Shown: positions 4,101 to 26,753, counted from the first letter of the stretch. The stretch: 64,000 nt of DNA from an uncultured Alteromonas sp. (GCA_964495885.1 CAZBWO010000011.1:18933-82932); one strand, 5' to 3'. Notes: a model not told the origin generated them from the sequence alone. Program-made: numbers and translations.

Positions 4101-5527
4101 GTTCCAATATCTAGGGTGTTGATTTGCCCATTAGAGAAAGAAACGTAGAGTGTTCCATCTGGAGCAAATACCATAGAGTTGGCATTTCCGCCTCCTCCTG
4201 CAGAAACTAGGTCACCCAATTCTGCACCAAGGGTATTTGTATCAAGATCATATTCAAACAATGCTCTGTTAAAAGTAGTAGGAGAATCTGCAATAAGGTA
4301 TACTTGTCCGTCTACTGGATTATAGTCTATGTGAACACTGTTTCCTAAAGAAGTATCTCCGTAAGGATCATCTACAAGCGTGATGGCATCTGTAACAGGG
4401 TCATAATCATATCTTCCCAAGTTGCTAGGTGCTCCAACAAATCCAGGGATAAGGGCATATAATCCTACTGGAGCATTTACTGTTGCTCCCCCAAGGCTTA
4501 CTTCTAGGGTACTTACCCCACAGTTATCGGTACTACCGCCATCAATTTCAGCGGCGTTCATGGTATACATCCCATTCGCATCCAATTCTACAGTAATGTC
4601 TTGGCATACTGCTACTGGAGCTTCTGTATCTTCAACAATCACATTGAAAGAACAGCTTACCGTGTTATTATCACTATCTGTAGCTTCATAAGTTACTACA
4701 GTGGTTCCTACGGGGAACATACTCCCGGAGGTAGGACCAGCCGTTTGGGTAACAGGGATAACTCCATCCTCTGGGTCAAAGGCAATAGGGTCTGTAAAGT
4801 TCACAACGGCAGAACAAACTCCTGCATCATTGGGAACGGTAATATCCATTGGACAGGAAATTGAAGGAGGGTTGCCACTTCCCAATCCTGAAACAATAAA
4901 GTTATCTACTGCAAAATCTTCATCTCCTGCATCTACGGAAACCGTAAGTCTTAGGTCTAGGGTAGTTCCAGTTCCGGCAATTGATTTTATGAAGGTTTCG
5001 GCAGTTCCTGTAAGAACGGTACCATCACCAATTCCATCAAAGTTCGTATCCTCACTAAAATTCCCATTGAAGTTTCCGTTGGATTCATCTCCTTCAAAAG
5101 CAATTAAATTCTGGTATCCGCCACCATCTATTTGGTATTGTACCAAGATGATGTCATTGGCAGCATCAATATCTCCAGGGCTATCGAAGAATTCTGCAAA
5201 ATCGCCACTAAATTCTAAGCTGGCCAGTCCAGAAATGTCTATTCCTGTCCAATCAACAACAATAGGAACGGTAGCACCGTCACCATCTAGGTCCATTCCT
5301 GTAAGGAATCCCCCAGAGAATCCAGTGTAAGCTTTGAGTCCGGAAGGAGCACTCCCGGCGCCCCAATCTCCAACACCTCCTAAGCCATAGAAATCTCCTC
5401 CTCCATCAGAGAAGAAAGCTTCGGAAGACGTAAAGCCAGAAGCGTCATCAAATGTTTCATTGAGTGCTTGTCCGAAGGACATCTGCACAAGAAACACTAA
5501 AGTAAATAGTGTAATAATTTTTTTCAT
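1163..5527 (-). CDS. Giant secreted multidomain surface protein: HYR and Cys-bracketed Ig-like modules, beta-propeller-like region, lamin-tail domain (LTD), T9SS type-A C-terminal sorting domain
   Basis: The track ORF starts at TTG 5554, and ATG 5527 gives the signal peptide MKKIITLFTLVFLVQMSFGQ. HYR-like: PPSISCPMDITVPNDAGVCSAVVNF...VSCSFNVIVEDTEAP. LTD: VFINEIHYDNTGADQDEAIEVAGPAGTDLSTYSLVLYNGNGG. T9SS CTD: IKLYPNPADQWVTL...SGVYMVQIAGEGQSTVKRLIKR. Confidence 0.85.
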   Translation of the reverse strand: MKKIITLFTLVFLVQMSFGQALNETFDDASGFTSSEAFFSDGGGDFYGLGGVGDWGAGSAPSGLKAYTGFSGGFLTGMDLDGDGATVPIVVDWTGIDISGLASLEFSGDFAEFFDSPGDIDAANDIILVQYQIDGGGYQNLIAFEGDESNGNFNGNFSEDTNFDGIGDGTVLTGTAETFIKSIAGTGTTLDLRLTVSVDAGDEDFAVDNFIVSGLGSGNPPSISCPMDITVPNDAGVCSAVVNFTDPIAFDPEDGVIPVTQTAGPTSGSMFPVGTTVVTYEATDSDNNTVSCSFNVIVEDTEAPVAVCQDITVELDANGMYTMNAAEIDGGSTDNCGVSTLEVSLGGATVNAPVGLYALIPGFVGAPSNLGRYDYDPVTDAITLVDDPYGDTSLGNSVHIDYNPVDGQVYLIADSPTTFNRALFEYDLDTNTLGAELGDLVSAGGGGNANSMVFAPDGTLYVSFSNGQINTLDIGTMTTSAFTTVPSTNGAMGLAYDYDNDEIIYVTGFGSITDLYSIDLAGTATLEFSFAPCTGAGNGTAQAMEYLGGGKMVVSGTGSCNTIYTIDLNTQTTNVILNPDGFEGVIKSLLYVPAGGGGPAAPSITFTCDDVGMQMVDLIVTDAAGNQSTCTATVTVEDNTAPEIICVGEASGPSVFINEIHYDNTGADQDEAIEVAGPAGTDLSTYSLVLYNGNGGAEYNTVALSGTIDDEGSGYGAVNFAISGIQNGAPDGIVLAQNGNVIQFLSYEGSFTAVGGVADGMTSTDIGVFEPGSTPIGESLQLTGTGTYYPDFTWMGPMASSPGDLNAGQTIQMPTSAAYDVVLDANGMATVNASDLVVSVTEACDYEVTVAGGAPMPGDLTTTFAGGSGIRSPMFDVNILSDMTINTFDVNLDDGAVMDIEIYAKLGTHVGSENNPGDWTLLETVTGVVSAGDGLPTPLNLSLNYQVNAGETHAFYIASDDKVAGAGFNYTVGTAVGDLFASDANMEILEGASVSYPFGTVFSPRIFNGTIYYNTGGAGTPNPTIDFDCSNVGENQVEVTVTDASGNTATCVATVNVIDETDPILVCQDITIELDENGMATIVPEDLLASTPTTYNAMVIGSDNASGTAGETDFEVNVTANETISFDWDYTTNDIPGFDSFGYVLNGTYNQLTDDLLGNQSGNTTVNLTAGDVFAFRVDTDDNGFGNSETIITNFQPGFTGQFAPANWTVVLNNSDGDAFFIEIPGGPLSFDACGISVLAVDIDEFSCDDIGTPVTVTVFASDPSGNLASCTSVVTVVDLLGPEVTCPADQTVDPGPNNLFYVLPDYFDTGEATAADNCTDPLTIFSQDPAPGTLLSDGVYTISLCSTDEYGNEGCCTFELTVESVLGNEDNALASGIKLYPNPADQWVTLGNQSGIQLEAAMVFDMNGRLVMDLDLSNMGTERQVDVSALASGVYMVQIAGEGQSTVKRLIKR

Positions 5528-5632
5528 AGTTGAATTAATTTTAATAGTCACCAAATATACTTCCTTCCAAGGTGAATTCCTTGGATTTTCAGATTAAATT
5601 AATGTAAAGAGAGGAGACAAAAAGAAGGATGA

Positions 5633-6795: not shown

Positions 6796-7713
6796 ATGAA
6801 AAAATGGAAATTACTACTTGGATTAATGTTCGTTACCACGATGTTTACTTCTTGTTATACTGAAGTGATTGTAGAAGATCCTATAGACCCAGTTCCTACC
6901 GTGACCCTTGCTGATATCATGGAGGGTTATGAACTTTGGTATGTAGACATTCACCGTTCCAATGCTCATGGGGAGATTCCTTTTATGCAGATGGCATTTA
7001 CCCTCTCGTTTCGGAATGGAACTTTATATGCCAACAACAATTTGGTTGGGATTGGGGATCAAGGATACGGATTTGGAATAGATATAGGTTTTTACAACAC
7101 CTATTCCAAAACCTTGGAAATTACACATGATATTGATGGGTATCATCAATTTAAAGTAAACCAGTTGAATGCCCATGAAATAGAGTTATATCACCCAGGT
7201 TGGGATGTATACTTTGTATTAGAGGGCTATCAGCGAAATACGTTTGATTATGATGCATTGTTTTATGACAATATCCATTACTTCCTTCAAGAATACTCGG
7301 CTTGGGAAAAAAGTTATACCAGTCCATACGGGGAGCCAAATCCTTTTGATTATGAGAATTACCTTCAATTTCTGCCAGGTGGCGGGGATGGTAATTTCCA
7401 GAGTTCGGAAGATCCAAACGGAATCCCTTATCCTAGTGTTTATTGGGATTACACAGGAATTTATAATGTAGACCCGGTGCAGGGAGATCGTTATCTAAAA
7501 TATTTAACATTAGATTATGATTATATGGGCAATGAATATTTTGAATTGAGCGTTATTGATGACAACACGATTGAATTGTTCCACTCTTTTTCAGCAACGG
7601 TTTACCGATTTAGGGGAAAAGGGTACATTCAATTAAAGAACAGTGCGACAGGAAAGCTTCGTCTTTCCAATGCTGAAATTGAACAACAAATGATCAAGAT
7701 CAGTTCGTTCTAA
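6796..7713 (+). CDS. Lipoprotein of unknown function
   Basis: 305 aa. Signal plus lipobox MKKWKLLLGLMFVTTMFTSC. Rich in aromatic, Asp and Gly residues. No family recognised. Confidence 0.7.
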   Translation: MKKWKLLLGLMFVTTMFTSCYTEVIVEDPIDPVPTVTLADIMEGYELWYVDIHRSNAHGEIPFMQMAFTLSFRNGTLYANNNLVGIGDQGYGFGIDIGFYNTYSKTLEITHDIDGYHQFKVNQLNAHEIELYHPGWDVYFVLEGYQRNTFDYDALFYDNIHYFLQEYSAWEKSYTSPYGEPNPFDYENYLQFLPGGGDGNFQSSEDPNGIPYPSVYWDYTGIYNVDPVQGDRYLKYLTLDYDYMGNEYFELSVIDDNTIELFHSFSATVYRFRGKGYIQLKNSATGKLRLSNAEIEQQMIKISSF

Positions 7714-9907: not shown

Positions 9908-10261
9908 TTATTTTGGATTCCCGTTTTTATCAAAATAACGGTCCAAATAGCGCTCAGTGAACCAAAAAGTTGATACAATGAGCAAAGTGTTGCCAGCGAT
10001 TGTTACGAGTATGTTGTAGTTTGGAAACAGGAAATAACCAATAGCTGGTATGAGTAAGCTGTACCAACAAACTTTTACCATGAATACACTGGAGTATGTG
10101 TTAGCTGACTTCCAAACTTTTTCATTGGCCATGGATCTACGGGTTCTGTAGCCATACCACCAATTAATTTTTTTAGGAGGATTCTTCTGAAATATATAGG
10201 CCAATAATAACATGAATATGCAGTATCCTAAACTGGCATAGAGTTGAACTTCTGCATCCAT
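9908..10261 (-). CDS. SdpI-family integral membrane protein
   Basis: 117 aa, 3-4 TM. NWWYGYRTRRSMANEKVWKSAN matches the SdpI/YfhL signature. It lies 6 nt downstream of the DUF1080 gene. Confidence 0.65.
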   Translation of the reverse strand: MDAEVQLYASLGYCIFMLLLAYIFQKNPPKKINWWYGYRTRRSMANEKVWKSANTYSSVFMVKVCWYSLLIPAIGYFLFPNYNILVTIAGNTLLIVSTFWFTERYLDRYFDKNGNPK

Positions 10262-10267
10262 GTGCTG

Positions 10268-11011
10268 CTATAATTCCTTGATTTTTATATTTCTAAACCA
10301 AACTTTATCGCCATGATCCTGAAGCCCTATGTGCCCAGTTTGGGAAACACCAAATCCTTCCCAATCCTTAAACTTTGAGTTGGCGACCATGGTGTCCCAC
10401 TCTTCACCATACACAGGGAAAGTGACGATTTTGGTTCCGTTAAGGGTCACGGTTCCTTGATTGGTTTCATGATTGATTTCAATCACGCAAAGGTTCCATT
10501 CTCCAGTAGGTTTTACAACAGAAAGATCACTCGGGGCAATCATGTCATACAATGAACCAGCTTTATGTGTGCCTTCCCCTACAAATGAATCTGGGTGTTT
10601 GGCGTCATCCAAAACTTGTATTTCGGGGCCCGTTTGAAAAATATAAGGATATGCTTCGTCTTCCTGTACCCCCCAAAAAATACCACTGTTTCCTCCCTCA
10701 GCAATTTTCCATTCCAAGGAAAGGATAAAATTAGTATACGTTTTTTTGGTTAGGATGTCATTGCCATGGGATTCCCCTGGAACGAACGCCATTGCTTCAT
10801 TTTCAATACGCCAGCCTGCAGGCATGCTATCTTTTTGGTAGCCACGCCAGTGGTCTAAGGAAGTTCCGTCAAAAAGGATTTCCCATTCTTGAGTATTTTC
10901 AGTTTCCGAAGTAGTGATTTCTGAATTTTCAGCAACTGGTTCTTGCGCTGTTTTTTCTTTGCAAGCTAAAAATGCAAAACCAAAAAGTAAGAGATAAATT
11001 GTTTTTTTCAT
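10268..11011 (-). CDS. DUF1080 (3-keto-disaccharide hydrolase family, PF06439-like) lipoprotein
   Basis: Lipobox MKKTIYLLLFGFAFLAC. ...ILFDGTSLDHWRGY... and C-terminal ...IGLQDHGDKVWFRNIKIKEL are the family's terminal motifs. Confidence 0.85.
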   Translation of the reverse strand: MKKTIYLLLFGFAFLACKEKTAQEPVAENSEITTSETENTQEWEILFDGTSLDHWRGYQKDSMPAGWRIENEAMAFVPGESHGNDILTKKTYTNFILSLEWKIAEGGNSGIFWGVQEDEAYPYIFQTGPEIQVLDDAKHPDSFVGEGTHKAGSLYDMIAPSDLSVVKPTGEWNLCVIEINHETNQGTVTLNGTKIVTFPVYGEEWDTMVANSKFKDWEGFGVSQTGHIGLQDHGDKVWFRNIKIKEL

Positions 11012-11020
11012 TGAGGTGTT

Positions 11021-11830
11021 TTATAGTTCCCTAACCCAAATATTTCGGTAGCTAACGCCACTTTGGTCTTGATGATCCTGAAGCTTAATGGGTGCAGGGC
11101 CATGTGCATCATTTTTAGGCCATCCTATATATTCTGTAGTGCCTTCCAACTCAAAGTGATCCTGAATTAGCACACCATTTAATAAGACGGTTAGCGTCGC
11201 CGATTTGGTTTTGTTGCCTTCGGAATCAAATTCTGGTGCATGGAAAATGATGTCATAGGTATTCCATTCTCCCGTGGGTTTTGCAGCCATGGCGAGTGGG
11301 ATGGATTGTTTATAGATTGACCCTACCATTCCATTTACATAAGTAGGATTATCATTATTATCCAATATCTGTACCTCATAGCGATTTTGGAGGAAGACGC
11401 CACTGTTGCTTCGGTTCTGATTAGTTTGTGTATTGTCTGGATTACTTCGCCATTCCAAATGTAATTGCACACTACCAAATGATTGTTTGGTTTGGATGTC
11501 CCCACTTTTATCCTTTACGGTCATACTTCCATCCCCGTTAAGAGTCCATGCTGCCTCTCCAGCTTCTTCTTTGGCACTTTCCCAAGCATCTAAATTAGAG
11601 CCATCAAAGAGTATGATTGCATCACTTGGGGCCCCATTTTGTTGGTTTGGATTTACTTTTGGGGGCACTGGCTCCCAAATTTCTGTTTCTTCTGGCTTGG
11701 TAGGTTCTTTCTGGGTCACGCTATCCATTTTTTGAGTAGGAGTTTCTGTTTTTTCCTCGGAAGTTTTGGTGCTGTCATTACATGCAAAAGATAACAAACC
11801 AGTAATTACTCCCATGACAAGATATTTCAT
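11021..11830 (-). CDS. DUF1080 (3-keto-disaccharide hydrolase family) lipoprotein, tandem paralog
   Basis: Lipobox MKYLVMGVITGLLSFAC followed by a T/E/K/P-rich linker. ...ILFDGSNLDAWES... and ...IKLQDHQDQSGVSYRNIWVREL. Confidence 0.85.
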   Translation of the reverse strand: MKYLVMGVITGLLSFACNDSTKTSEEKTETPTQKMDSVTQKEPTKPEETEIWEPVPPKVNPNQQNGAPSDAIILFDGSNLDAWESAKEEAGEAAWTLNGDGSMTVKDKSGDIQTKQSFGSVQLHLEWRSNPDNTQTNQNRSNSGVFLQNRYEVQILDNNDNPTYVNGMVGSIYKQSIPLAMAAKPTGEWNTYDIIFHAPEFDSEGNKTKSATLTVLLNGVLIQDHFELEGTTEYIGWPKNDAHGPAPIKLQDHQDQSGVSYRNIWVREL

Positions 11831-11840
11831 ATGGTTGTTT

Positions 11841-12896
11841 TTAGAGTCCTAATATTTTTCTGAGACGTTCTTTATCGATTTCCGCGCCTGCGAAATCATC
11901 AAAACGCTTTTGAGTGGCTTCAATGATATGTTTTTGAATAAATGGTGCTCCTTCACGCGCACCCTGTTCTGGGCTTTTAATCACACATTCCCATTCCATT
12001 ACGGCCCAGACATCGCAACCATATTCAGTAAGTTTACTAAAAATGGTTTTAAAATCTACCTGTCCGTCACCCGGTGAACGATAGCGTCCGGCCCGGTCCC
12101 GCCAATCTGAATATCCTCCAAAAGCCCCGCGTTTCCCATCTGGCAGGAATTCAGAGTCTTTTACGTGGAAAGACTTAATAAACTCGTGGTAATGGTCTAT
12201 ATATTCAATATAATCTAATTGTTGTAATACAAAGTGACTGGGGTCATAGAGGATGTTTACGGCTTTATGATTTCCGGTAGCTTCCAGAAAACGCTCAAAA
12301 GTAACCCCGTCATGGATATCTTCTCCGGGATGCACTTCATAGCATACGGCAACGCCATTTTCTTCAAATTCATTTAGCAGCGGAAGCCAACGTTTGGCCA
12401 ATTCTTCGAAGCCCATTTCCACTAGACCATCTGGACGTTGTGGCCAAGGATGGAAGGTATGCCAAAGTAAGGCTCCACTAAAAGTTGCGTGCGCTTTAAG
12501 TCCTAAATGTTTGCTAGCACGCGCAGCACTTAGGAGTTGGTTTCGGGCCCATTCGGTGCGTTTTTTAGGATTGTTTTTACAATCATCTGGCGCAAAATTG
12601 TCAAACATCAAATCATAAGCTGGATGTACCGCTACCAATTGCCCTTGTAGGTGGGTAGAGAGTTCGGTAATTTCAAGTCCGTAGCTATTGATAGTTCCTT
12701 TCAGTTCATCACAATAATCTTTGCTTTCCCCCGCAAGGGTTAAATCAATAAGCCTAGATTCCCAAGTAGGAATTTGAATTCCTTTATACCCAAGATCTGC
12801 AGCCCATTTACAAATACTTTCCAAGCTATTGAAAGGCGCTTTGTCATCCATAAATTGGGCTAGAAAAACTGCAGGTCCTTTAATGGTCTTCATCAT
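11841..12896 (-). CDS. Sugar phosphate isomerase/epimerase (xylose-isomerase-like TIM barrel), cytoplasmic
   Basis: 351 aa with no signal peptide. Family-like motifs are ...YKGIQIP..., ...CYEVHPGEDIHD..., ...FHVKDSEF... Confidence 0.8.
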   Translation of the reverse strand: MMKTIKGPAVFLAQFMDDKAPFNSLESICKWAADLGYKGIQIPTWESRLIDLTLAGESKDYCDELKGTINSYGLEITELSTHLQGQLVAVHPAYDLMFDNFAPDDCKNNPKKRTEWARNQLLSAARASKHLGLKAHATFSGALLWHTFHPWPQRPDGLVEMGFEELAKRWLPLLNEFEENGVAVCYEVHPGEDIHDGVTFERFLEATGNHKAVNILYDPSHFVLQQLDYIEYIDHYHEFIKSFHVKDSEFLPDGKRGAFGGYSDWRDRAGRYRSPGDGQVDFKTIFSKLTEYGCDVWAVMEWECVIKSPEQGAREGAPFIQKHIIEATQKRFDDFAGAEIDKERLRKILGL

Positions 12897-12906
12897 TTAG
12901 TTGCTT

Positions 12907-14040
12907 TTAAAGTTCTTTCCAAATGTTCCCTTCTTGGTGGGAGGCTACTGATGTTTCGATAAAGTGCATGCCTCTAACACCATCTTCCATAGAAGGGAAT
13001 TCGGCAGGATCATAATCTTGATTTCTAATTGCCTTTGCCATGCCTTTATAAATATTCCCCATGGCATCAAAAATCCCCTCTGGATGTCCTGGTGGGAGTT
13101 TGGTTCCCTCTAAAGAAAGTTCACTGTTATAGGCATGTCCTGGTTTCAAGGTTTTTAATGGCTGTCCTTCTTCTAAGTGATAAAGATAATTGGGATTTTC
13201 CTGTTCCCATTTCAATCCACCATTTTTTCCATAGATTGCTACGGTAAAATTGTTTTCTTCGGCGGTGGCAATTTGGCTGGCCCGAAGAACCCCTTTTGTA
13301 TTCCCGTTGAAACGCAGCAGGACGGTACCATCAATATCCATTACATTATCTTCGTACAGATAGTTGAGGTCTGCCAGAATGGAAGTTACTTTCATCCCAG
13401 AAACATATTCCAACATTTGGTAAGCATGTACGCCAATATCACCCATACAACAGCTAATCCCTGATTTTTTCGGATTGAGACGCCAGGTGGTTTTTCGTTG
13501 CTCTACATCATGAATGATGGGGTTGATCCATCCTTGGTAATATTGCACATCTATTTTTTGGATTTCCCCCAAAACGCCATTGGCAATCATCTTTTTCATT
13601 TGGCGTATCATTGGATAGCCGGTATAGGTATGGGTAAGGGCGAAAAGTGTATTGTTTTTTTGCTGAATGGATTGTAGTTCCAATGCTTCCGAATAGGTCA
13701 TGGTCATTGGTTTTTCACAGATCACATTAAACCCATTTTCAATCAGCTTTTTGGCCATGGGGAAGTGAAGGAAATTCGGTGTTAAAATCGAAAATACCTG
13801 AATACGCTCACTTTCAGGAAGTTTTAACTCTTCTTCCACCATGGTATCAAAATCCTTGTAAATACGATTGGTTGGAATTCCTATTTCTTTAGCAAACGCC
13901 ATGTTTGCTTCAAAGTCTGGGTTAAAAACAGCTCCTGTTAATTGATAGGCATCAAACATACTGGCGGCAACCCGGTGCAGCACCCCAATTAAGGAATCAC
14001 CTCCACCACCAAGTACACCCCAGCGAATTTTATTACTCAT
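12907..14040 (-). CDS. Gfo/Idh/MocA-family NAD(P)-dependent sugar oxidoreductase, cytoplasmic
   Basis: 377 aa. N-terminal Rossmann IRWGVLGGGGDSLIG and the ...VICEKPMT... (EKP) motif. Confidence 0.9.
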   Translation of the reverse strand: MSNKIRWGVLGGGGDSLIGVLHRVAASMFDAYQLTGAVFNPDFEANMAFAKEIGIPTNRIYKDFDTMVEEELKLPESERIQVFSILTPNFLHFPMAKKLIENGFNVICEKPMTMTYSEALELQSIQQKNNTLFALTHTYTGYPMIRQMKKMIANGVLGEIQKIDVQYYQGWINPIIHDVEQRKTTWRLNPKKSGISCCMGDIGVHAYQMLEYVSGMKVTSILADLNYLYEDNVMDIDGTVLLRFNGNTKGVLRASQIATAEENNFTVAIYGKNGGLKWEQENPNYLYHLEEGQPLKTLKPGHAYNSELSLEGTKLPPGHPEGIFDAMGNIYKGMAKAIRNQDYDPAEFPSMEDGVRGMHFIETSVASHQEGNIWKEL

Positions 14041-14045
14041 ATTGT

Positions 14046-15269
14046 TTATTCTTTATATTCTATTTTTTCGTTTTTAAACAACAATGCGAAAAGTACCAAT
14101 ACTCCTCCCGCAAATAAGGCTGGGAACGTCCAAATGGTTTTCCATCCATGTGCACCTCCATCTAATAAATTGGCATCGGTAACTTTTCCAGCAACATAGA
14201 AACCTATCAACATTCCAAGTCCATAAGTAGCCAAGGTAATCAGCCCTTGCGCCGCACTTTTTGCTTTTTCTCCAGCTTTGCTATCGGTATAAATTTGTCC
14301 GGAAACGAAGAAGAAATCATAGCAAATCCCATGAAGTAAAATTCCTATAATAATCATGAATACCAGTTCCCCAGTATCACCATACGCAAAGAGTAAATAC
14401 CGAATGGTCCAAGCCAACATCCCAGCAAGGATAGTGAGTTTGAAACCAAAACGCTTAAAGAAAAACGGCAATAATAGCATGAACAGAATTTCTGAAACCT
14501 GCCCTAACGATGCTTTCCCGGTTGAACCTTCCATGCCGATTTCAACAAGGAACGGACTTAAATTCTGATAATAAAATGCGAGTGGGATACAAATTAAAAT
14601 GGAAGCAAGGAAGAAGACTAAAAAGTTTCGGTCCTTCAGTAGTTTTAATGCATCAAGCCCTAAAATATCTGAAATACTAGAGGAAGTTCCTTTTGCTTTC
14701 GGAGGGGTTTTAGGTAAAGTGAAACTGAAAACCCCAAGTACTGCGGAAGCAACTGCCACCATTAGAAACGTATTGGATAAATCACCGGCTGCAATGCCTG
14801 CTTCAGAATCCCAAGCCATAAAACTAATGGTAACTCCTGCCACAATCCAACCAATGGTTCCCCATACCCGAATAAATGGAAAGGACTTAGCAGGATCTTT
14901 CATTTGATTGAACGAAACCGAATTCACCAAAGCCAATGTAGGCATATACGCAATCATATATCCTAAAACATAGGGGTAAAAAACATTGAAGTCGGTTGCT
15001 TTAGACATTTGGTACATTAAAAAAGCGCCAATAAGGTGAAGGATTCCCAAAATCCGTTCTGCATTAAAATAACGATCGGCAATAAGTCCAATAATAAACG
15101 GTGCAATTATAGCCCCCCATGATTGGGTAGAAAAAGCCATGGCTGTTTCTGCTCCAGAAGCAGATAGGTTATTGCCCAAAAAAGTTCCTAAAGTCACAAA
15201 CCATCCACCCCAAATAAAGAATTCGAGGAACATCATTATGGAAAGTCGAATATAATTAAGTGTTTTCAT
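14046..15269 (-). CDS. MFS permease of the NupG/XapB nucleoside:H+ symporter family
   Basis: 407 aa, about 12 TM. N-terminus ...IRLSIMMFLEFFIWGGWFVTLGTFL... is characteristic of the nucleoside-transporter MFS family. Confidence 0.8.
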   Translation of the reverse strand: MKTLNYIRLSIMMFLEFFIWGGWFVTLGTFLGNNLSASGAETAMAFSTQSWGAIIAPFIIGLIADRYFNAERILGILHLIGAFLMYQMSKATDFNVFYPYVLGYMIAYMPTLALVNSVSFNQMKDPAKSFPFIRVWGTIGWIVAGVTISFMAWDSEAGIAAGDLSNTFLMVAVASAVLGVFSFTLPKTPPKAKGTSSSISDILGLDALKLLKDRNFLVFFLASILICIPLAFYYQNLSPFLVEIGMEGSTGKASLGQVSEILFMLLLPFFFKRFGFKLTILAGMLAWTIRYLLFAYGDTGELVFMIIIGILLHGICYDFFFVSGQIYTDSKAGEKAKSAAQGLITLATYGLGMLIGFYVAGKVTDANLLDGGAHGWKTIWTFPALFAGGVLVLFALLFKNEKIEYKE

Positions 15270-15280
15270 AAGAGACAGTA

Positions 15281-16252
15281 TTATTGGTTAAGTGCTTTTA
15301 ATACTAACGCTTTGGTGGCAGCAATTCCTTCGGCAGGGGTTGCTTCCCCTTCAAATTCAATCCCGATGAAGCCTTCAAAGTCTGAAGCCTTCACAATATC
15401 CATCATTTTATAGAAATCGATTTTAGTTTCATCACCGTTCGCGTCAAATTCATAAGACTTAGCCGAAACGCCTTTTGCATAAGGCATAAGCATTTCGGTT
15501 CCTTTATACTTGTCATATTCTTCTACACAAGGAGCACCCCATCGGGCACCACCTTCACGCTTCAAACAGAAGTTTCCAAAATCAGGAAGGGTTCCTACGT
15601 TTTCCATGTCAACTCCCTCCATCACCCTAACTAATAATTCAGCATTACTTGAGAGCCCGCCGTGATTTTCTACAATAATATTTACATTTTTAGGGGCGGC
15701 ATATTCACATAGTGCTTTAAGGGAGCGTACAGAGTTTTTTACCCAGTCATCTGCATTTTCTTCCCCAAATAAATTTACACGAATAGAGTGGCACCCTAAA
15801 AAGGCCGCGGCGTCAATCCACTTTTTATGGTTTTCCACGGCTTGGTTGGTAATGGCCTCATCGTTAAAGGAAAGATCTCCTTCCCCATCAATCATAATTA
15901 ATAAGTTTTGCATTCCATGACGCTCACTGCGTACTTTGAGGGTGTCTAAAAGAACTTGGAGTTCTACTCCTTTCATGGGGTAGTTTACGTTTTCATTTAC
16001 GTACAGCTGACTTACATACTCAAGGCCTTCAAAGCCCATTTCACTTGCGGTTTTGGCAAAATCTGTAGGGTCTGCTTCCCCTGCAAAAATGTGTTTGTTT
16101 AATGACCATTGTGCTAAGGAAAGGGAATAGGACTTTTCTGGAATGGTATCTTCGGAAATTTCGGAAGTTGCTGTATTGTCTTCTTGTTTGGCCTGGTCCT
16201 TACAGGCGCCTAAGAGGAAGACCGCTAAAACTAGCAGGGCTAAATTTTTCAT
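15281..16252 (-). CDS. Xylose-isomerase-like TIM-barrel protein, lipoprotein (periplasm-facing)
   Basis: The track start 16258 is TTG. ATG 16252 gives MKNLALLVLAVFLLGAC (lipobox). ...CHSIRVNLFG..., ...IIVENHGG..., ...FIGIEFEG... are TIM-barrel isomerase-like motifs. Confidence 0.8.
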   Translation of the reverse strand: MKNLALLVLAVFLLGACKDQAKQEDNTATSEISEDTIPEKSYSLSLAQWSLNKHIFAGEADPTDFAKTASEMGFEGLEYVSQLYVNENVNYPMKGVELQVLLDTLKVRSERHGMQNLLIMIDGEGDLSFNDEAITNQAVENHKKWIDAAAFLGCHSIRVNLFGEENADDWVKNSVRSLKALCEYAAPKNVNIIVENHGGLSSNAELLVRVMEGVDMENVGTLPDFGNFCLKREGGARWGAPCVEEYDKYKGTEMLMPYAKGVSAKSYEFDANGDETKIDFYKMMDIVKASDFEGFIGIEFEGEATPAEGIAATKALVLKALNQ

Positions 16253-16367
16253 TGTCAAATTGATATGGTTAATTGAGAGAAATAGTTGGTCTGGTTTATT
16301 GGCTCTAAGATAAGCCTTTTTTGAAAGGAAACTAAAGGAATGACTTCATGATTGAGATTTTAATAGG

Positions 16368-16381
16368 CGAAAACGTTTTCG
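16368..16381. promoter_or_regulatory. Perfect 14-bp palindrome CGAAAACGTTTTCG, candidate LacI/GalR-type operator in a divergent promoter region
   Basis: Read directly from the sequence. It lies 116 bp upstream of the minus-strand operon start codon and 156 bp upstream of the GMC oxidoreductase ATG. 13 of 14 nt recur at 26740-26753. Confidence 0.5.
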
Positions 16382-16536
16382 ACTGACAATCTTCTTATTT
16401 TAAGGAGGGTTTTTTGTATAATCGAAAAAAATGGCGGAAATTAGTAGTTACATTACGTTTTTCTGGGAATTTTGAAATTTCAGATCCACAGAAATTCATT
16501 TGACCGAAATTTTCTTATTAACTGAATAACAAACAC

Positions 16537-18234
16537 ATGGCAAACCCTAATGAAATGTATGATGCCATCGTCGTGGGTTCTGGGATTAGCGGCGGTTGGG
16601 CTGCCAAGGAACTTTGCGAAGGTGGGTTAAAAACCTTGGTCTTGGAACGAGGCCGAATGGTAAAACACATTGAAGATTACCCTACCGCGAATATGGACCC
16701 TTGGGATTTTAAATTCAAAGGGCAACTTCCCGTTGAGGAAAAGAAAAAACAATTAAAACAATCCAGAACTGGATATACTACAGATGAATCGGCACGCCAT
16801 TGGTTTGTGAATGATCTTGTACACCCTTATAACGAGGTCAAAAGATTTGACTGGATTAGAGGATACCATGTAGGTGGAAGATCTATTATGTGGGGACGTC
16901 AAAGCTATCGTTTAAGTGATATTGATTTTGCCGCAAATAAGAATGAAGGTATTGCTGTAGATTGGCCCGTTCGTTATAAGGATATCGCACCATGGTATGA
17001 TAAAGTAGAGGAATTTATTGGGGTAAGTGGTGAAGCTCTAGGAATGGAAGTTCTACCTGATGGCGTTTTCTCTCCCCCAATGGAATTGAACTGTGCCGAA
17101 GAGGAATTTAAAAATACCCTAAAAGCGAATTATGATGACGGCAGGGTACTAACCATTGGCCGTGCAGCACATATTACAGGAGATAAAGCCCATGAAGGCC
17201 GATCTAATTGTCAATATAGAAACCGTTGTATGCGCGGTTGTCCGTTTGGCGCTTATTTTAGCAGCGTATCTTCTACCTTGCCTGCTGCCGAAAAAACTGG
17301 AAATATGACCCTAAGGCCAAATTCCATTGTACATGAAATCATGTATGATGAGGCAACAAAAAAAGCCACAGGGGTGAAAGTAATAGATGCTGAAACTGGT
17401 GAAAAAATGGAATTCAAAGCAAAGGTGGTTTTCCTTTGTGCGTCTGCCATTGCAACCGCAAGTATCTTAATGCAATCTAAAAGTGAACGCTTCCCGAACG
17501 GAATGGGGAATGACAGCGGGGAATTAGGATGTAATATCATGGACCACCATTTCAAAGCAGGGGCCATGGCAAAAGTAGATGCTTTCGAAGATAAATATTA
17601 TAAAGGAAGACGGCCTAATGGAATATACATTCCGCGTTTTAGAAATATTGGCGGAAAAACAGACATGCCTACCTTTAAAAGAGGATATGGCTATCAAGGA
17701 GGCGCAGGTCGCTCCAACTACGAAGAAGTCGTTGCTGAATTAGGCTACGGAAAAGCCCTCAAGGATGAAATCCAAAAACCCGGAAGCTGGAGTATGTTGT
17801 TGATGGGCTTTGGAGAGTGTCTTCCATACCACGATAATAAAATGACCTTGGATTACGACAAGTTGGATAAGTGGGGATTACCTACAATTACCTTTGACGT
17901 TGAGTGGAAGGAAAACGAGTATGCAATGCGTAAAGACATGGTACAACAAGCCATGGAAATGTTAGAAAAAGCAGGGTATAAGGATATTCGTCCGTGGGAT
18001 GATCCTGGAGCTCCAGGTTTGGGAATTCACGAAATGGGAACTGCACGTATGGGGAATGATCCAAAAACTTCTGTTTGCAACAAGAATAACCAGTTACATG
18101 CAGTATCAAACGTATACTGCACCGATGGATCCTTTATGACTTCGGCTAGCTGTGTGAACCCTTCACTAACGTATATGGCATTTACAGCAAGAGCTGCTAA
18201 ACATGCCATTGATCAACTTAAAAACGAAGCATAA
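16537..18234 (+). CDS. GMC-family FAD-dependent oxidoreductase (large subunit of a glucoside/gluconate-dehydrogenase-type complex)
   Basis: 565 aa. FAD fold YDAIVVGSGISGGWAAKEL sits at the extreme N-terminus with no signal peptide. The C-terminal ...GTARMG... motif region is GMC-like. The stop overlaps the next ATG (TAATG). Confidence 0.9.
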   Translation: MANPNEMYDAIVVGSGISGGWAAKELCEGGLKTLVLERGRMVKHIEDYPTANMDPWDFKFKGQLPVEEKKKQLKQSRTGYTTDESARHWFVNDLVHPYNEVKRFDWIRGYHVGGRSIMWGRQSYRLSDIDFAANKNEGIAVDWPVRYKDIAPWYDKVEEFIGVSGEALGMEVLPDGVFSPPMELNCAEEEFKNTLKANYDDGRVLTIGRAAHITGDKAHEGRSNCQYRNRCMRGCPFGAYFSSVSSTLPAAEKTGNMTLRPNSIVHEIMYDEATKKATGVKVIDAETGEKMEFKAKVVFLCASAIATASILMQSKSERFPNGMGNDSGELGCNIMDHHFKAGAMAKVDAFEDKYYKGRRPNGIYIPRFRNIGGKTDMPTFKRGYGYQGGAGRSNYEEVVAELGYGKALKDEIQKPGSWSMLLMGFGECLPYHDNKMTLDYDKLDKWGLPTITFDVEWKENEYAMRKDMVQQAMEMLEKAGYKDIRPWDDPGAPGLGIHEMGTARMGNDPKTSVCNKNNQLHAVSNVYCTDGSFMTSASCVNPSLTYMAFTARAAKHAIDQLKNEA

Positions 18235-18923
18235 TGGATAGAAGACAAGCATTACGAAACATAGGATGGGGAGCTGGTGCCTTAGTGGCAACTCCTACCA
18301 TCATTAGTATATTACAGAGTTGTGAGAACAAGCCAACCTTTGTCCCTGTTTTTCTTTCAGCTGCCCAAGGACATGCCCTTAAGAGTATGGTAGATTTAAT
18401 TATTCCAAATGATGAAGCTGTACCAGGTGCTGTTGCAGTAGGGGTACACGAATTTATTGATTCTTATTGGGATCAAGTGCTTCCTTCAGATGAAAGTCAA
18501 TTGAAAGACGAATTTATGGATTCCTCTCCTACGCAAGAAAAGCAATTTGTAAAAGATGCCTTTGCAACCTTTGAAAATAGTTTTAAGACTACATTCAACA
18601 AAGAATTGGCAGATGGAACCCCTGAAGAGTTTGACCAACTTTTAGCGAAATATCTTCGTAGCAGTAAGGAAGAACAAATGGCTTATGGAAAGAAGATGGC
18701 AGAGTATTTGATGGCATTGGAGAAAGATCCTGCTACTGCTAGTTTTGATGAAGACGCTCAACTATTTTATTTGCTTTCCTCTATTCGAGGGTTAACCACT
18801 TGGGGATGGAAAACCAGCGAACAAATTGGTGAAAATGTACTATGGTACGATCCAGTTCCTGGTCAGCAGAAAGGATGTATTCCTTTGGAAGAAGCTGGAA
18901 ACGGTAAAGTGATGTCATTATAA
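18234..18923 (+). CDS. Gluconate 2-dehydrogenase subunit-3-family small subunit with twin-arginine signal
   Basis: 229 aa. Tat motif MDRRQALRNIGWGAGALVA. Translationally coupled to the GMC gene. Confidence 0.8.
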   Translation: MDRRQALRNIGWGAGALVATPTIISILQSCENKPTFVPVFLSAAQGHALKSMVDLIIPNDEAVPGAVAVGVHEFIDSYWDQVLPSDESQLKDEFMDSSPTQEKQFVKDAFATFENSFKTTFNKELADGTPEEFDQLLAKYLRSSKEEQMAYGKKMAEYLMALEKDPATASFDEDAQLFYLLSSIRGLTTWGWKTSEQIGENVLWYDPVPGQQKGCIPLEEAGNGKVMSL

Positions 18924-18931
18924 TATAAACT

Positions 18932-19861
18932 ATGGATCGAAGATCATTCATACAAAAGGGAGCCTTTGTGGGTTCCCTTTTTTCATTAGGAGGAACAGCG
19001 TTAGCTTCAGAAATTTTTTCAAGTAAAAAGGTGTTTACTTCCGAAGCCCCTTTTCATTTAAAATATGCTCCACACGATGGAATGTTTAAAGCTCATGCTG
19101 GAGACTCCATACTCCCACAGCTAGATTTTATGGCCGCTCAAGGATTTACGGCTTTTGAGGATAATGAAATGCGTAACAGGAGTATTTCAGAACAGAAAGA
19201 AATAGCGAACAAAATGCAATCCTTAGGGATGCAAATGGGCGTTTTTGTCGCGCATAAGATTTATTGGAACGAACCCAACCTTGCTAGTGGAAATTTAGAA
19301 AAAAGGGAAGAATTCCTTTCAGAAATACGTGCTTCTGTTGAAGTGGCCAAAAGAGTAAATGCGAAATGGATGACTGTAGTTCCGGGTCATATAGATCCAA
19401 GGTTAAACGTGCAATACCAAACTGCAAATGTGGTAGAATCCCTTAAACAGGCTTGTGCTATTTTAGAACCTCACGGACTTGTCATGGTCTTGGAGCCGCT
19501 TAATTTTAGAGATCATCCTGGGTTGTTTCTTTCAGAATCGCCGCAAGCTTACCAAATTTGTAAGGCAGTGAACAGCGAGTCCTGTAAGATTTTGTTTGAC
19601 ATTTATCATCAACAAATTCAAGAAGGCAATTTAATTCCTAATATTGAGGCCTGTTGGGACGAGATTGCCTATTTTCAAGTAGGGGATAATCCAGGAAGAA
19701 AGGAGCCCACCACTGGGGAAATAAATTACAGGAATGTATTTCGATTTATTCATGATAAAGGATTTGATGGAATTGTTGGAATGGAGCATGGAAATTCCAC
19801 TGAAGGAAAACTTGGGGAATTGAAGGTTATTGAGGCCTATAAGGAAGTTGATAATTTTTAG
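18932..19861 (+). CDS. Hydroxypyruvate-isomerase-like TIM-barrel protein with twin-arginine signal
   Basis: 309 aa. Tat motif MDRRSFIQKGAFVGSLFSLGGTALA. ...MVLEPLNFRDHPG... and ...VGMEHG... are typical of the Hyi/xylose-isomerase-like fold. Confidence 0.85.
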   Translation: MDRRSFIQKGAFVGSLFSLGGTALASEIFSSKKVFTSEAPFHLKYAPHDGMFKAHAGDSILPQLDFMAAQGFTAFEDNEMRNRSISEQKEIANKMQSLGMQMGVFVAHKIYWNEPNLASGNLEKREEFLSEIRASVEVAKRVNAKWMTVVPGHIDPRLNVQYQTANVVESLKQACAILEPHGLVMVLEPLNFRDHPGLFLSESPQAYQICKAVNSESCKILFDIYHQQIQEGNLIPNIEACWDEIAYFQVGDNPGRKEPTTGEINYRNVFRFIHDKGFDGIVGMEHGNSTEGKLGELKVIEAYKEVDNF

Positions 19862-19867
19862 AAAAGA

Positions 19868-20473
19868 ATGGACTCGCGATTGGCTTCCGTATCACTACCC
19901 TTGAAATGTGATGTTTCGTATTTTGAAATTTTCATTTCCCCTACAGTTTCAAAGGAACTGTATCAACTTTTCCAACATGATTACCAAATTCAAGCGTCTA
20001 AGCTTTCATGGAAAATAGGTGATGAGATTATAGAAAGTGATTTCAGTAAAATAATTTTCACAGATCAAGAATTAATACATAAAAATGTTTTTGAAGCTTC
20101 TATTTGGGGAAATTCATATGTTTGGCCTGCTGCCTTGCTTCCAGTTAAGGAAGCCATTGAAGATATCACAAAAAAAGAGTTTCGGGTTTGTGTTTGCATT
20201 TATTATCCAGATGGTACCTCTGGTGTAGATTTCCATTCAGATTTTGTAGCATTTGGTGACACCAGCGTGATTCCTTCTTTAAGTTTGGGGGCAGAAAGGA
20301 CGTTTCAGCTTCGTGAAAGAGCTACGCAAGAAGTCTACAGTAAATTATTACATGAAGGGAGCCTTGTTGTTATGGGAGATCAATGTCAAGAACTTTATGA
20401 ACATGCGCTCCCCTTGGACCCTAAATGCAAAAGCGGAAGAATCAATTTGACCTTCCGCCAGTATGGGTTATAA
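19868..20473 (+). CDS. alkB: AlkB-family Fe(II)/2-oxoglutarate dioxygenase
   Basis: 201 aa. HxD (VDFHSDF), distal His (YEHALP) and RINLTFRQ (RxNxTxR) motifs. ATG lies 6 nt after the preceding stop. Confidence 0.8.
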   Translation: MDSRLASVSLPLKCDVSYFEIFISPTVSKELYQLFQHDYQIQASKLSWKIGDEIIESDFSKIIFTDQELIHKNVFEASIWGNSYVWPAALLPVKEAIEDITKKEFRVCVCIYYPDGTSGVDFHSDFVAFGDTSVIPSLSLGAERTFQLRERATQEVYSKLLHEGSLVVMGDQCQELYEHALPLDPKCKSGRINLTFRQYGL

Positions 20474-20481
20474 AGAGATTT

Positions 20482-20994
20482 TTACTCTACTATAAACTTC
20501 CCTTTCATCATGGCCGAATGGCCTGGGAAACTACAGATAAAATCATACGTTCCTTTTTCCGGTGCTGTAAATGTAATGGAATCAGACTCACCGCCACCCA
20601 GCATTTTGGTATGTACAATCACCTCTGCGCCTTCTTCCGGAATCCAATCTGCATCTTCACCCGCATTGGAAGCTTTGATGGAAAATTCCTGAATGCTAAC
20701 GCCAGGTTTTAGCAATACAAAATTGTGCCCCATAACCTTCATGTCCAACTTCCCAATATGTGAAAGTATCAAGGTAACTTCTTGACCAGCTTTCACTTTA
20801 ATTTCACTTTTGTTGAATTTCATCATGTCATTACCAGTAAGGGTAACCTCTACACTTTTAGGGTCTTCCTTTTTGGTTTCTTCGGTAGTGCCAATTTTAA
20901 TGGAACTATCCTCTTTTTTCTTTTCTTCTTTTCCACCACAAGCTATCAAAAGCGATAGTGTTGCAAGCAGGAGTATAGATTTAAGTGTTTTCAT
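20482..20994 (-). CDS. azu: Azurin-type blue-copper protein, lipoprotein
   Basis: Lipobox LLIAC followed by a K/E-rich linker. The azurin body is ...LTGNDMMKFN...VMGHNFVL...HTKMLGGGE...FICSFPGHSAMMKGKFIV. The Cu ligands His, Cys, His and Met are all present. Confidence 0.9.
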   Translation of the reverse strand: MKTLKSILLLATLSLLIACGGKEEKKKEDSSIKIGTTEETKKEDPKSVEVTLTGNDMMKFNKSEIKVKAGQEVTLILSHIGKLDMKVMGHNFVLLKPGVSIQEFSIKASNAGEDADWIPEEGAEVIVHTKMLGGGESDSITFTAPEKGTYDFICSFPGHSAMMKGKFIVE

Positions 20995-21000
20995 CGTGTA

Positions 21001-21960
21001 TTATTTTGTAGTTAAAAATTCTAAAGTTCTTTTTTCACTGTAGTAGACTTTTTCGGTTAGATGAAAGCCCACATGGCCGCCATATTTTGGCGTTTCAAGA
21101 TAGAGTATTTTTGATTTTTCCGCAAGGGAATAGGGATAACATTCTGAAGGTAAAAAACTATCGTTTTGTGCATTGAGAATTAATACAGGGACGGGTATTT
21201 CTGGAAGAAATTGTAAGCTGCTATTTTTTTGGTAATAGTCGAATGCGTCTTCAAATCCGTTTGCTGGCGCAGTATACCAATCATCAAATGCTTTCAGGCT
21301 TGTAATTTTATGAAGTTCTTTTTCTGAAATTTGTTCGGGGAACTGATGAATTTTATGAGATACTTTTTTCCGAAGATCCTTCAGGAAAACAGACCGGTAC
21401 AGCCAATTTTCCCATTGAGCAAGTTTCCAGAGCGTACCTTTTAAATCTACCGGAGTAGAAATAGCAATTCCTTTTTTGATTTCCTTTGGGGTTTCCCTTC
21501 CTTCTCCTAAATATTTTAACAGCAAATTACCCCCAAGGCTAAAGCCCACCAAGGCTATTTCCTTGTATTGATTTTTTCCTAGCACATATTCCACAACCCA
21601 ATGGAGGTCTTCCGTTTTTCCAGCAGTATAGGATTCAAACTTCCAATTGGGCTCCCCACTGCAGCCCCGTAAATTTACCGCACAGGCATCCCATCCTTTT
21701 TTATTCAATATGCTGGCTTGTCCCACCATATAAGTGCGTTGTGCGTTTCCTTCCAGGCCGTGCAATAAAATTGCGATTTTTTCCGAAGGACCCTCCGAAA
21801 AAGAAAAGTCCAAATCCAGAAAATCTCCATCGGGCAACATCAAACGCTCCCTTTTTTGGGTCAGTTTTGGAGGCTTTCGAAGTTTTGCTGAATAGATGGT
21901 GGCAAAGTGCCCGTTTTTAAAAATTCCTTTAGGGTTATATTTTGAAGTTACTAGCGGCAT
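21001..21960 (-). CDS. Alpha/beta hydrolase (YheT/ABHD1-3-like)
   Basis: 319 aa. ...ILLHGLEGN... and nucleophile elbow GFSLGG. It ends 6 nt upstream of the azurin gene on the same strand. Confidence 0.85.
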   Translation of the reverse strand: MPLVTSKYNPKGIFKNGHFATIYSAKLRKPPKLTQKRERLMLPDGDFLDLDFSFSEGPSEKIAILLHGLEGNAQRTYMVGQASILNKKGWDACAVNLRGCSGEPNWKFESYTAGKTEDLHWVVEYVLGKNQYKEIALVGFSLGGNLLLKYLGEGRETPKEIKKGIAISTPVDLKGTLWKLAQWENWLYRSVFLKDLRKKVSHKIHQFPEQISEKELHKITSLKAFDDWYTAPANGFEDAFDYYQKNSSLQFLPEIPVPVLILNAQNDSFLPSECYPYSLAEKSKILYLETPKYGGHVGFHLTEKVYYSEKRTLEFLTTK

Positions 21961-26739: not shown

Positions 26740-26753
26740 CGAAAACGTTTTCA
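26740..26753. promoter_or_regulatory. Second copy of the CGAAAACGTTTTC palindrome (candidate LacI-type operator) upstream of gdhA
   Basis: The read is CGAAAACGTTTTCA, so 13 of 14 nt are identical to 16368-16381. It is intergenic, about 100 nt upstream of the gdhA GTG. Confidence 0.5.

Follow-up and report, generated by a model that had tools for sequence, protein, structure and literature searches.

Gene content and organization of the locus

The 64,000-nucleotide stretch of DNA analyzed here (GCA_964495885.1 CAZBWO010000011.1:18933-82932; hereafter the window) comes from the 3.2 Mb genome of a marine member of the Flavobacteriaceae, close to Halomarinibacterium, Aureisphaera and Aureitalea. 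Positions 9908-19861 of the window contain ten open reading frames (ORFs), with coordinates as previously placed, in two divergent strings separated by a gap of 278 nt. These genes are likely to encode a pathway for the non-hydrolytic cleavage of small glycosides through 3-keto intermediates, with its enzymes distributed on the two sides of the inner membrane. The ORFs, a palindrome in the divergent promoter and a nearby cupredoxin gene are as follows.

9908-10261, minus strand: small SdpI/YfhL-like membrane protein (PF13630, E 2.9e-11), the last ORF of the minus-strand string
10268-11011, minus strand: DUF1080 lipoprotein, DUF1080a (PF06439, E 2.4e-45)
11021-11830, minus strand: DUF1080 lipoprotein, DUF1080b (PF06439, E 1.2e-40)
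11841-12896, minus strand: triosephosphate isomerase (TIM) barrel without a signal, predicted AtHYD ortholog (PF01261; PDB 8ro4)
12907-14040, minus strand: Gfo/Idh/MocA oxidoreductase without a signal (PF01408, PF22725, PF02894)
14046-15269, minus strand: NupG/XapB-family MFS permease, nucleoside:H+ symporter type (PF03825, E 3e-116)
15281-16258, minus strand: TIM-barrel lipoprotein, 4ovx family (PF01261, E 2.2e-22)
16368-16381, no strand: palindrome CGAAAACGTTTTCG in the divergent promoter, probable LacI-family operator
16537-18234, plus strand: GMC flavoprotein, predicted GlycDH ortholog, no signal peptide of its own
18234-18923, plus strand: small subunit with a twin-arginine translocation (Tat) signal, "gluconate 2-dehydrogenase subunit 3" type (PF13618, E 1.6e-19)
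18932-19861, plus strand: Tat-exported TIM barrel, Hyi/ketose-epimerase type (PF01261, E 6.5e-34)
20482-20994, minus strand, beyond 9908-19861: cupredoxin lipoprotein, azurin/plastocyanin type (PF00127, E 8.6e-21)

The genes of the minus-strand string are spaced 5-11 nt apart, and the GMC and small-subunit genes overlap as TAATG. A lipobox cysteine is present in both DUF1080 proteins and in the TIM barrel encoded at 15281-16258; it is nearly invariant among the orthologs of all three proteins. A twin-arginine (RR) motif is present in the small subunit and in the TIM barrel encoded at 18932-19861, and is invariant in orthologs of both. The GMC protein, the Gfo/Idh/MocA (hereafter Gfo) protein and the TIM barrel encoded at 11841-12896 carry no signal and their folds begin at the N-terminus; the Rossmann motif of the Gfo protein starts at residue 9, which leaves no room for a signal. 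The gene set, domains, export signals and TAATG coupling described in a first-pass annotation, made from the sequence alone, were all borne out by ORF, Pfam and sequence reading. The same annotation had described the cluster as lacking a glycoside hydrolase and a SusC/D pair, and none was found among the neighboring genes and the large ORFs of the window that were scanned.

For comparison, 80 Flavobacteriaceae loci were collected around relatives of the GMC protein, and gene presence in these loci includes tblastn matches. Conservation of the cluster as a block had been named beforehand as a test of the grouping, and it held in the 80 loci. The most constant genes were those for the GMC protein (80 loci), the small subunit (79), the TIM lipoprotein (77), the Gfo protein (72), the MFS permease (71) and the cytoplasmic TIM barrel (71). 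DUF1080b (57 loci), the Tat-exported TIM barrel (39) and DUF1080a (35) were less constant. The SdpI-like ORF, which lies 6 nt after DUF1080a, was syntenic in 22 of the 80 loci only and is doubtful as a member of the cluster; the first-pass annotation had made no mention of it.

Predicted glycoside oxidation and electron transfer

Reference sequences of the Agrobacterium/Rhizobium glycoside dehydrogenase operon were taken from the supplement of PMC10628242 and contain small optical character recognition errors. The GMC protein aligned over its full length with GlycDH of Rhizobium sp. GIN611 (54% identity, 558 aligned columns, E 0) and is predicted to be its ortholog, a glycoside 3-dehydrogenase. 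GlycDH oxidizes C3 of O- and C-glucosides, uses ferricyanide at least 100-fold better than O2 and was co-expressed with a TAT protein (PMC10628242). The GMC protein has the GxGxxG motif for flavin adenine dinucleotide (FAD) at residues 13-18. It also aligned with the large subunits of fructose dehydrogenase (FDH) and FAD-dependent glucose dehydrogenase (FAD-GDH), a distant homology (E 1e-34 to 1e-38) in which Cys225, Cys231 and Cys235 align to the Cys-rich motif of FDH. The 3Fe-4S cluster in the catalytic subunit of this enzyme family is the first electron acceptor of the FAD (PMC9727119), and the aligned cysteines suggest that the GMC protein probably carries such a cluster. In FAD-GDH, a disulfide to the small subunit is formed by the second Cys of a CC pair; the GMC protein lacks this residue.

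The Tat region of the small subunit is followed by an invariant LLQSC sequence, a feature absent from the first-pass annotation; the RR motif and LLQSC are found together in about 60 orthologs. Because the invariant LLQSC ends its signal, the small subunit is probably a Tat-exported lipoprotein and thus anchored by lipid. A "hitch-hiker" role of the small subunit in export is known from FAD-GDH (PMC9727119). A second GMC flavoprotein, 36% identical and with its own PF13618 small subunit, is encoded elsewhere in the genome (C14:24171-25859, locus L002) between the genes for formate-tetrahydrofolate ligase and asparagine synthase, with no sugar genes nearby.

The FAD-GDH and FDH relatives hand their electrons to a three-heme cytochrome c subunit (PMC9727119). 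No LacB-like cytochrome was recognized in a scan of the genome for CxxCH. The cupredoxin gene is 620 nt downstream of the cluster and is adjacent to it in 42 of the 80 loci. Among related genomes, cupredoxin was present in 6 of the 10 that have the cytoplasmic TIM barrel (the predicted hydratase, see below) and in 5 of the 31 that do not, and it is missing from the operon of Aquimarina. Its position makes the cupredoxin a candidate electron acceptor only. Its absence from four relatives that have the hydratase, and from the operon of Aquimarina, led us to reject it as an obligatory partner. The cupredoxin gene and a gene for an alpha/beta hydrolase (window 20482-21960) are 6 nt apart and occur together beside the cluster in 42-43 of the 80 loci.

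Candidate cleavage enzymes outside the cytoplasm

Three exported proteins are candidates for cleavage of the oxidized glycoside, and a fourth may be accessory. DUF1080a matched PDB entries 8v31 (E 8.6e-37), 8rr2 (E 1.6e-34) and 8tda (E 1.8e-34). The last of these, whose entry carries only the name "Probable secreted glycosyl hydrolase," we take to be BT2157 of Bacteroides thetaiotaomicron. Recent work assigns 3-keto-alpha-glucoside lyase and glucal hydratase activities to DUF1080 enzymes, in place of hydrolysis (bioRxiv 10.1101/2024.03.25.586180). By analogy with BT2157, DUF1080a is a candidate 3-keto-alpha-glycoside 1,2-lyase and 2-hydroxy-3-keto-glucal hydratase. DUF1080b shares about 27% identity with DUF1080a and falls into a different subfamily; it matched the uncharacterized entry 4qhz (E 8.9e-73) and matched 8tda at E 8e-4 only. 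The two proteins are the sole DUF1080 proteins encoded in the genome, and family membership suggests that DUF1080b is probably another lyase or hydratase.

Both exported TIM barrels were modeled with AlphaFold2 from alignments of 33 ortholog sequences and the models were compared with the PDB by Foldseek. The TIM lipoprotein (predicted local distance difference test score, pLDDT, 87.9) is 48% identical to 4ovx, an uncharacterized Planctomyces protein (E 3e-72). Its nearest folds were 4ovx, followed by DgpC, DfgA and CarB, the catalytic subunits of 3-keto-C-glycoside lyases (E 1e-15 to 1e-11), and no PDB sequence match to a BT2156-type 3-keto-beta-glucoside lyase chain was obtained at E <= 0.01. 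The modeled fold makes the TIM lipoprotein the best candidate for a 3-keto-beta-glycoside lyase in place of AtOGE of the Agrobacterium system. The Tat-exported TIM barrel (pLDDT 82.2) scored 136.6 bits with TIGR03234, far under the 353-bit cut-off of that model, and its nearest folds were ketose 3-epimerases, the Hyi-like proteins 3ngf and 1k77, and YcjR, a 3-keto-glucoside 4-epimerase. This protein appears accessory and is possibly a periplasmic 3-keto-sugar epimerase or isomerase.

Predicted import and cytoplasmic enzymes

The MFS permease scored 373 bits with the TIGR00889 nucleoside permease model (NCBIfam), below its 446-bit cut-off. In each of the 71 loci with the MFS gene, the TIM lipoprotein gene is on one side of it and the Gfo gene on the other, and the permease is predicted to import a 3-keto sugar or the glucal product.

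The TIM barrel encoded at 11841-12896 matched PDB 8ro4 at about 67% identity from end to end (E 4.6e-161), and the N-termini of the two proteins coincide. PDB 8ro4 is AtHYD, the 2-hydroxy-3-keto-glucal hydratase of Agrobacterium tumefaciens. AtHYD was inactive on 3-keto-phlorizin and was assigned to the hydration of the elimination product on preliminary evidence (PMC10628242). The 11841-12896 TIM barrel is most likely an AtHYD ortholog and a hydratase of the same kind, as the extent of the identity suggests. At least 8000 homologs of the hydratase were found at E <= 1e-50, and the best 120, which were the matches listed, all came from close flavobacterial relatives; among them, the label was "sugar phosphate isomerase/epimerase" wherever the source names the protein. 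A literature search on 2-hydroxy-3-keto-glucal hydratase gave no direct result.

The Gfo gene adjoins the hydratase gene at a distance of 10 nt. Its product aligned over the full length with the "Gfo Oxo" protein of A. tumefaciens (35% identity, E 2e-71) and matched PDB 3v5n (E 1e-85). A mixture of AtOGE, AtHYD, the Agrobacterium Gfo enzyme and NADH converted 3-keto-phlorizin to glucose (Suppl. Fig. 22, PMC10628242), and the present Gfo protein is by homology a probable NAD(P)H-dependent 3-ketoglucose reductase. The identity of the TIM barrel to AtHYD together with the homology of the Gfo protein to the reductase suggests that the cytoplasmic set provides the last two steps of one pathway.

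A predicted operator in the divergent promoter

The sequence CGAAAACGTTTTCG at 16368-16381 is a perfect palindrome, and a second site is present in the window at 26740-26753. The genome contains 3 exact copies and 12 copies with one mismatch, and 13 of these 15 sites are intergenic. As read from the ORFs, sites are located upstream of pfkA, a glyceraldehyde-3-phosphate dehydrogenase gene, pckA, the pyruvate dehydrogenase E1-alpha gene (pdhA) and serC, and further sites upstream of gdhA, anmK, an Lrp-type regulator gene and a sugar MFS gene. A SusC-like gene and the gene for a LacI-family regulator flank one of the sites. The regulator gene (C15:3982-5001) is the only LacI-family gene of the genome and is part of an island with genes for GH32, SusC/D, GH97, a GH100-like invertase, a GH37 trehalase, MFS transporters and fructokinase-like proteins.

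Most loci of the closest relatives retain the palindrome at a distance of about 120-170 nt upstream from the GMC gene, whereas Aquimarina and most Leeuwenhoekiella lack it. At least 10 related genomes have the palindrome immediately upstream of a gene of the LacI family. Composition predicts 0.013 exact sites and 0.59 sites with one mismatch, an expectation that overstates the enrichment: the reversed pattern, used as a control, matched 8 times in the genome, compared to 15 times for the real one. This control makes the count weak, and the case for an operator rests on position and conservation. These point to the palindrome as the probable operator of the only LacI-family regulator of the genome, and the cluster would then be under LacI-type control common to glycolysis and the sucrose/trehalose genes. 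Control shared with these genes fits a role in carbon-source use and mildly favors small glucosides as substrates. A scan for sigma-70 promoters and terminators gave fewer sites than, or no more than, shuffled sequence and was uninformative, as expected for Bacteroidota.

A proposed pathway divided by the inner membrane

From the observed homologies, export signals, synteny and operator conservation we infer the enzymatic activities, the location of the lipoproteins (periplasm or cell surface), the cargo of the permease, the substrate, the electron acceptor and the regulator. The reading that we consider likely is a single non-hydrolytic 3-keto-glycoside route of oxidation, elimination, hydration and reduction, split over the inner membrane. 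The GMC protein, with its FAD and probable 3Fe-4S cluster, would be exported attached to the Tat-signal small subunit, which is probably lipid-anchored. The complex would act on a small glycoside that reaches the periplasm by diffusion, oxidizing its C3 hydroxyl and passing the electrons to an external acceptor. The periplasmic lipoproteins would then break the activated glycosidic bond by beta-elimination, DUF1080a acting on alpha-linked substrates and the 4ovx-type TIM barrel, and perhaps DUF1080b, on beta-linked substrates. This step would release the aglycone together with 2-hydroxy-3-keto-glucal, and some of the glucal may be converted to 3-ketoglucose by hydration at this stage. We propose an accessory role for the Tat-exported epimerase-like TIM barrel, which may widen the range of sugars. 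After import of the keto-sugar product by the NupG-type MFS permease, the AtHYD ortholog would hydrate the glucal to 3-ketoglucose in the cytoplasm and the Gfo protein would reduce this to glucose with NAD(P)H. The operator in the divergent promoter would serve the sole LacI-family regulator.

Several points weigh against this reading. Lipoproteins of Bacteroidota can be surface-exposed. AtOGE gave no sequence counterpart when compared by BLASTP with the two exported TIM barrels (E 0.9 and 1.9), so that the cleavage step is left to fold similarity and DUF1080a. DUF1080b and the Tat-exported TIM barrel had no characterized close relative in the PDB sequence and fold searches. There was no CxxCH ORF for a cytochrome c subunit within about 16 kb of the cluster, and the link between the cupredoxin and the pathway is weak. 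The permease belongs to a nucleoside-permease family, which makes its cargo a guess. Gfo/Idh/MocA enzymes of this pathway are reversible (bioRxiv 10.1101/2024.03.25.586180), and the direction of the present one is therefore not readable from sequence.

A more specific form of the pathway would combine two features: transfer of electrons from the glycoside 3-dehydrogenase to the neighboring lipid-anchored cupredoxin and not to cytochrome c, and cleavage by members of uncharacterized subfamilies (the 4ovx-type TIM lipoprotein, the 4qhz-type DUF1080 protein and the Tat-exported Hyi-like TIM barrel), at least one of which would have a new 3-keto-sugar activity. We propose this combination tentatively and think it, on the whole, unlikely.

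The first-pass annotation had described an oxidative 3-keto glycoside-cleavage cluster with a complete oxidize-then-cleave route on both sides of the inner membrane. Oxidation and cleavage outside the cytoplasm are supported by the homologies described above. The second, cytoplasmic route is probably wrong, given the homology to AtHYD (67% identity) and to the reductase (35%). With two full routes, the permease would import an intact glycoside or a nucleoside-like compound, the Gfo protein would oxidize it at C3 and the signal-less TIM barrel would cleave it. Consistent with such a route, the permease is of the NupG family, Gfo enzymes of this kind are reversible, and pairs of a Gfo protein and a TIM barrel carry out cytoplasmic oxidation and elimination in levoglucosan and C-glycoside systems (PMC10628242). 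The Gfo protein also has weak matches to levoglucosan dehydrogenase and glycoside 3-dehydrogenase models (NF052479, E 1.6e-22; NF058561, E 4.6e-7), but these are far under the cut-offs of the models (79.7 vs. 650 bits and 28.8 vs. 750 bits, respectively), and its full-length match is the Agrobacterium reductase. The TIM barrel likewise shares 67% identity with an enzyme that is inactive on 3-keto-phlorizin and has been assigned, on preliminary grounds, to glucal hydration. In 41 related genomes, the GMC gene was found in 12, the hydratase gene in 10 and both in 9; for 9 of 10 genomes, the hydratase/Gfo pair goes together with the gene for the periplasmic GMC protein. Two complete routes are quite unlikely on this evidence.

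The divided pathway might also follow the same logic with other substrates, such as galactosides (lactose, as for Caulobacter LacABC), algal glycosides, or pseudo- and thio-glycosides, with the Tat-exported TIM barrel converting 3-keto-galacto or other epimers to the gluco series. The resemblance of this TIM barrel to YcjR and to ketose 3-epimerases fits such a role; a LacABC-type GMC protein and DUF1080 protein were needed for growth on lactose, salicin and raffinose (PMC9007349), and specificity is very broad in the systems of B. thetaiotaomicron and Alistipes (bioRxiv 10.1101/2024.03.25.586180). However, the closest characterized proteins, GlycDH and AtHYD, act on gluco-configured substrates, specificity is unreadable from sequence, and the Tat-exported TIM barrel was undetected in about half of the loci. 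We regard a substrate range of this kind as improbable.

Synteny and rearrangement of the cluster

In the closest genera the block is located next to yicC and gmk, and part of the co-occurrence of its genes is therefore inherited synteny. In Aquimarina the core is away from yicC and gmk and forms a single co-directional operon in the order GMC, small subunit, TIM lipoprotein, MFS, Gfo, hydratase and DUF1080b. A core that has moved and been rearranged into one operon argues for a functional unit. That the genes are neighbors by shared chromosome ancestry and not by shared function is very improbable, since the common position beside yicC and gmk, which makes some of the co-occurrence plain synteny, is offset by the Aquimarina arrangement, by the close spacings and TAATG overlap, and by the operon that the same enzyme set forms in Agrobacterium (PMC10628242).

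The Tat-exported TIM barrel was not detected by tblastn in the Aquimarina operon. This operon, from Aquimarina sp. (locus L057, NZ_CP159328.1, 8763-18490), is flanked by a divergent gene for a 296-amino-acid TIM barrel and by a convergent gene for a PfkB-family sugar kinase, which would fit phosphorylation of the released hexose. In another related genome (G019, contig C1, about 313478-326092), the hydratase and cupredoxin genes are about 12 kb apart. No GMC ortholog was found in that genome at E <= 1e-50, and it may use a different 3-dehydrogenase.

The gene for the Tat-exported TIM barrel is followed, at a distance of 6 nt, by a gene for an AlkB-type 2-oxoglutarate-Fe(II) oxygenase (PF13532, window 19868-20473). 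The oxygenase was rejected as a member of the pathway, being present in none of the 80 related loci, and this absence suggests an insertion private to the present genome. Elsewhere in the window, a protein of 1463 amino acids (1163-5554) has an HYR domain and a C-terminal sorting domain of the type IX secretion system; it confirms a Bacteroidota host with type IX secretion and is unrelated to the cluster. The window ORFs at 6796-7713 (305 amino acids) and 47262-48512 (416 amino acids) had no Pfam match at the thresholds used.

Comparison with known systems

The chemistry of 3-keto-glycosides goes back to work on 3-ketosucrose in Agrobacterium in the 1960s (bioRxiv 10.1101/2024.03.25.586180). 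The closest characterized system is the GlycDH operon of A. tumefaciens and Rhizobium sp. GIN611 (Bitter et al. 2023, PMC10628242), which shares its four-step logic with the present cluster as well as the GMC protein (54% identity), the hydratase (67%) and the Gfo protein (35%). Four of the five sequence-level features of that operon are found here (GMC, small subunit, hydratase and Gfo reductase), AtOGE being the exception. In place of AtOGE the present cluster has the 4ovx-family TIM lipoprotein, two DUF1080 lipoproteins and the Tat-exported epimerase-like TIM barrel, and it differs further in having an MFS permease within the operon and lipid-anchored periplasmic parts.

The cluster resembles BT2156-BT2160 of B. 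thetaiotaomicron and AL1-3 of Alistipes (PMC8121099; bioRxiv 10.1101/2024.03.25.586180) in its BT2157-type DUF1080 protein, its TIM-barrel partner and the cleavage of 3-keto-glycosides outside the cytoplasm, which is a prediction for the present cluster. The oxidant of those systems is a Tat-exported Gfo/Idh/MocA protein with tightly bound NAD that is recycled by 3-ketoglucose, whereas the oxidant here would be a FAD/Fe-S GMC protein of the respiratory type. In contrast to the BT2158 family, the present Gfo protein has no signal and falls far below the cut-off of the NF058561 model. A SusR-type regulator is also missing from the present cluster.

The lacABC cluster of Caulobacter crescentus (Price et al. 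2022, PMC9007349) has the same parts list, namely a GMC protein with a small subunit, DUF1080, a transporter, two TIM barrels ("epimerases") and a reductase. The LacABC dehydrogenase is a three-component enzyme described as dependent on cytochrome c (PMC9007349), and no cytochrome c gene is linked to the present cluster. Homologous clusters are present in Pedobacter sp. GW460-11-11-14-LB5, Echinicola, Indibacter and Algoriphagus, and the clusters of Caulobacter, Pedobacter and Echinicola were needed for growth on disaccharides and glycosides, including lactose, salicin, raffinose and trehalose (PMC9007349).

Burkholderia cepacia FAD-GDH and Gluconobacter FDH (PDB 6a2u, 7w2j; PMC9727119) share with the GMC complex the Cys triad of the 3Fe-4S cluster and a Tat "hitch-hiker" small subunit. 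Unlike these heterotrimeric enzymes, the present operon has no gene for a three-heme cytochrome c subunit. The logic of oxidation, elimination, hydration and reduction is also that of the levoglucosan pathway of Bacillus smithii (Kuritani et al. 2020, PMC7676230) and of DgpBC and CarBC, all of which are cytoplasmic, unlike the present cluster. C-glycoside deglycosidases depend on a small beta subunit, for which the Pfam matches of the ten ORFs offer no candidate; the likeness to these enzymes is limited to the fold of the TIM lipoprotein. The cluster is also unlike a polysaccharide utilization locus (PUL), which has a SusC/SusD pair and, as a rule, glycoside hydrolases; neither was found among the scanned ORFs of the window.

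Significance

The novelty implied by the first-pass annotation did not survive comparison with the literature, in which both the chemistry and the cluster design were published between 2021 and 2024 (PMC8121099, PMC9007349, PMC10628242, bioRxiv 10.1101/2024.03.25.586180). The cluster is a known, recently described pathway in a form conserved in marine Flavobacteriaceae and not a new pathway. The electron acceptor, the roles of the TIM lipoprotein, DUF1080b and the Tat-exported TIM barrel, the cargo of the permease and the LacI-type control are targets for enzymology, none of which overturns current understanding. The probable connection of a LacI-family regulator with central glycolysis in a flavobacterium may merit separate study.

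The cluster adds a well-conserved marine example to the non-hydrolytic pathway of glycoside use, which public annotation hides behind names such as "sugar phosphate isomerase/epimerase." In marine carbon cycling, the predicted pathway would make small glycosides accessible to many Flavobacteriaceae without a carbohydrate-active enzyme (CAZyme) or a PUL, a capacity that CAZyme-based surveys would miss.

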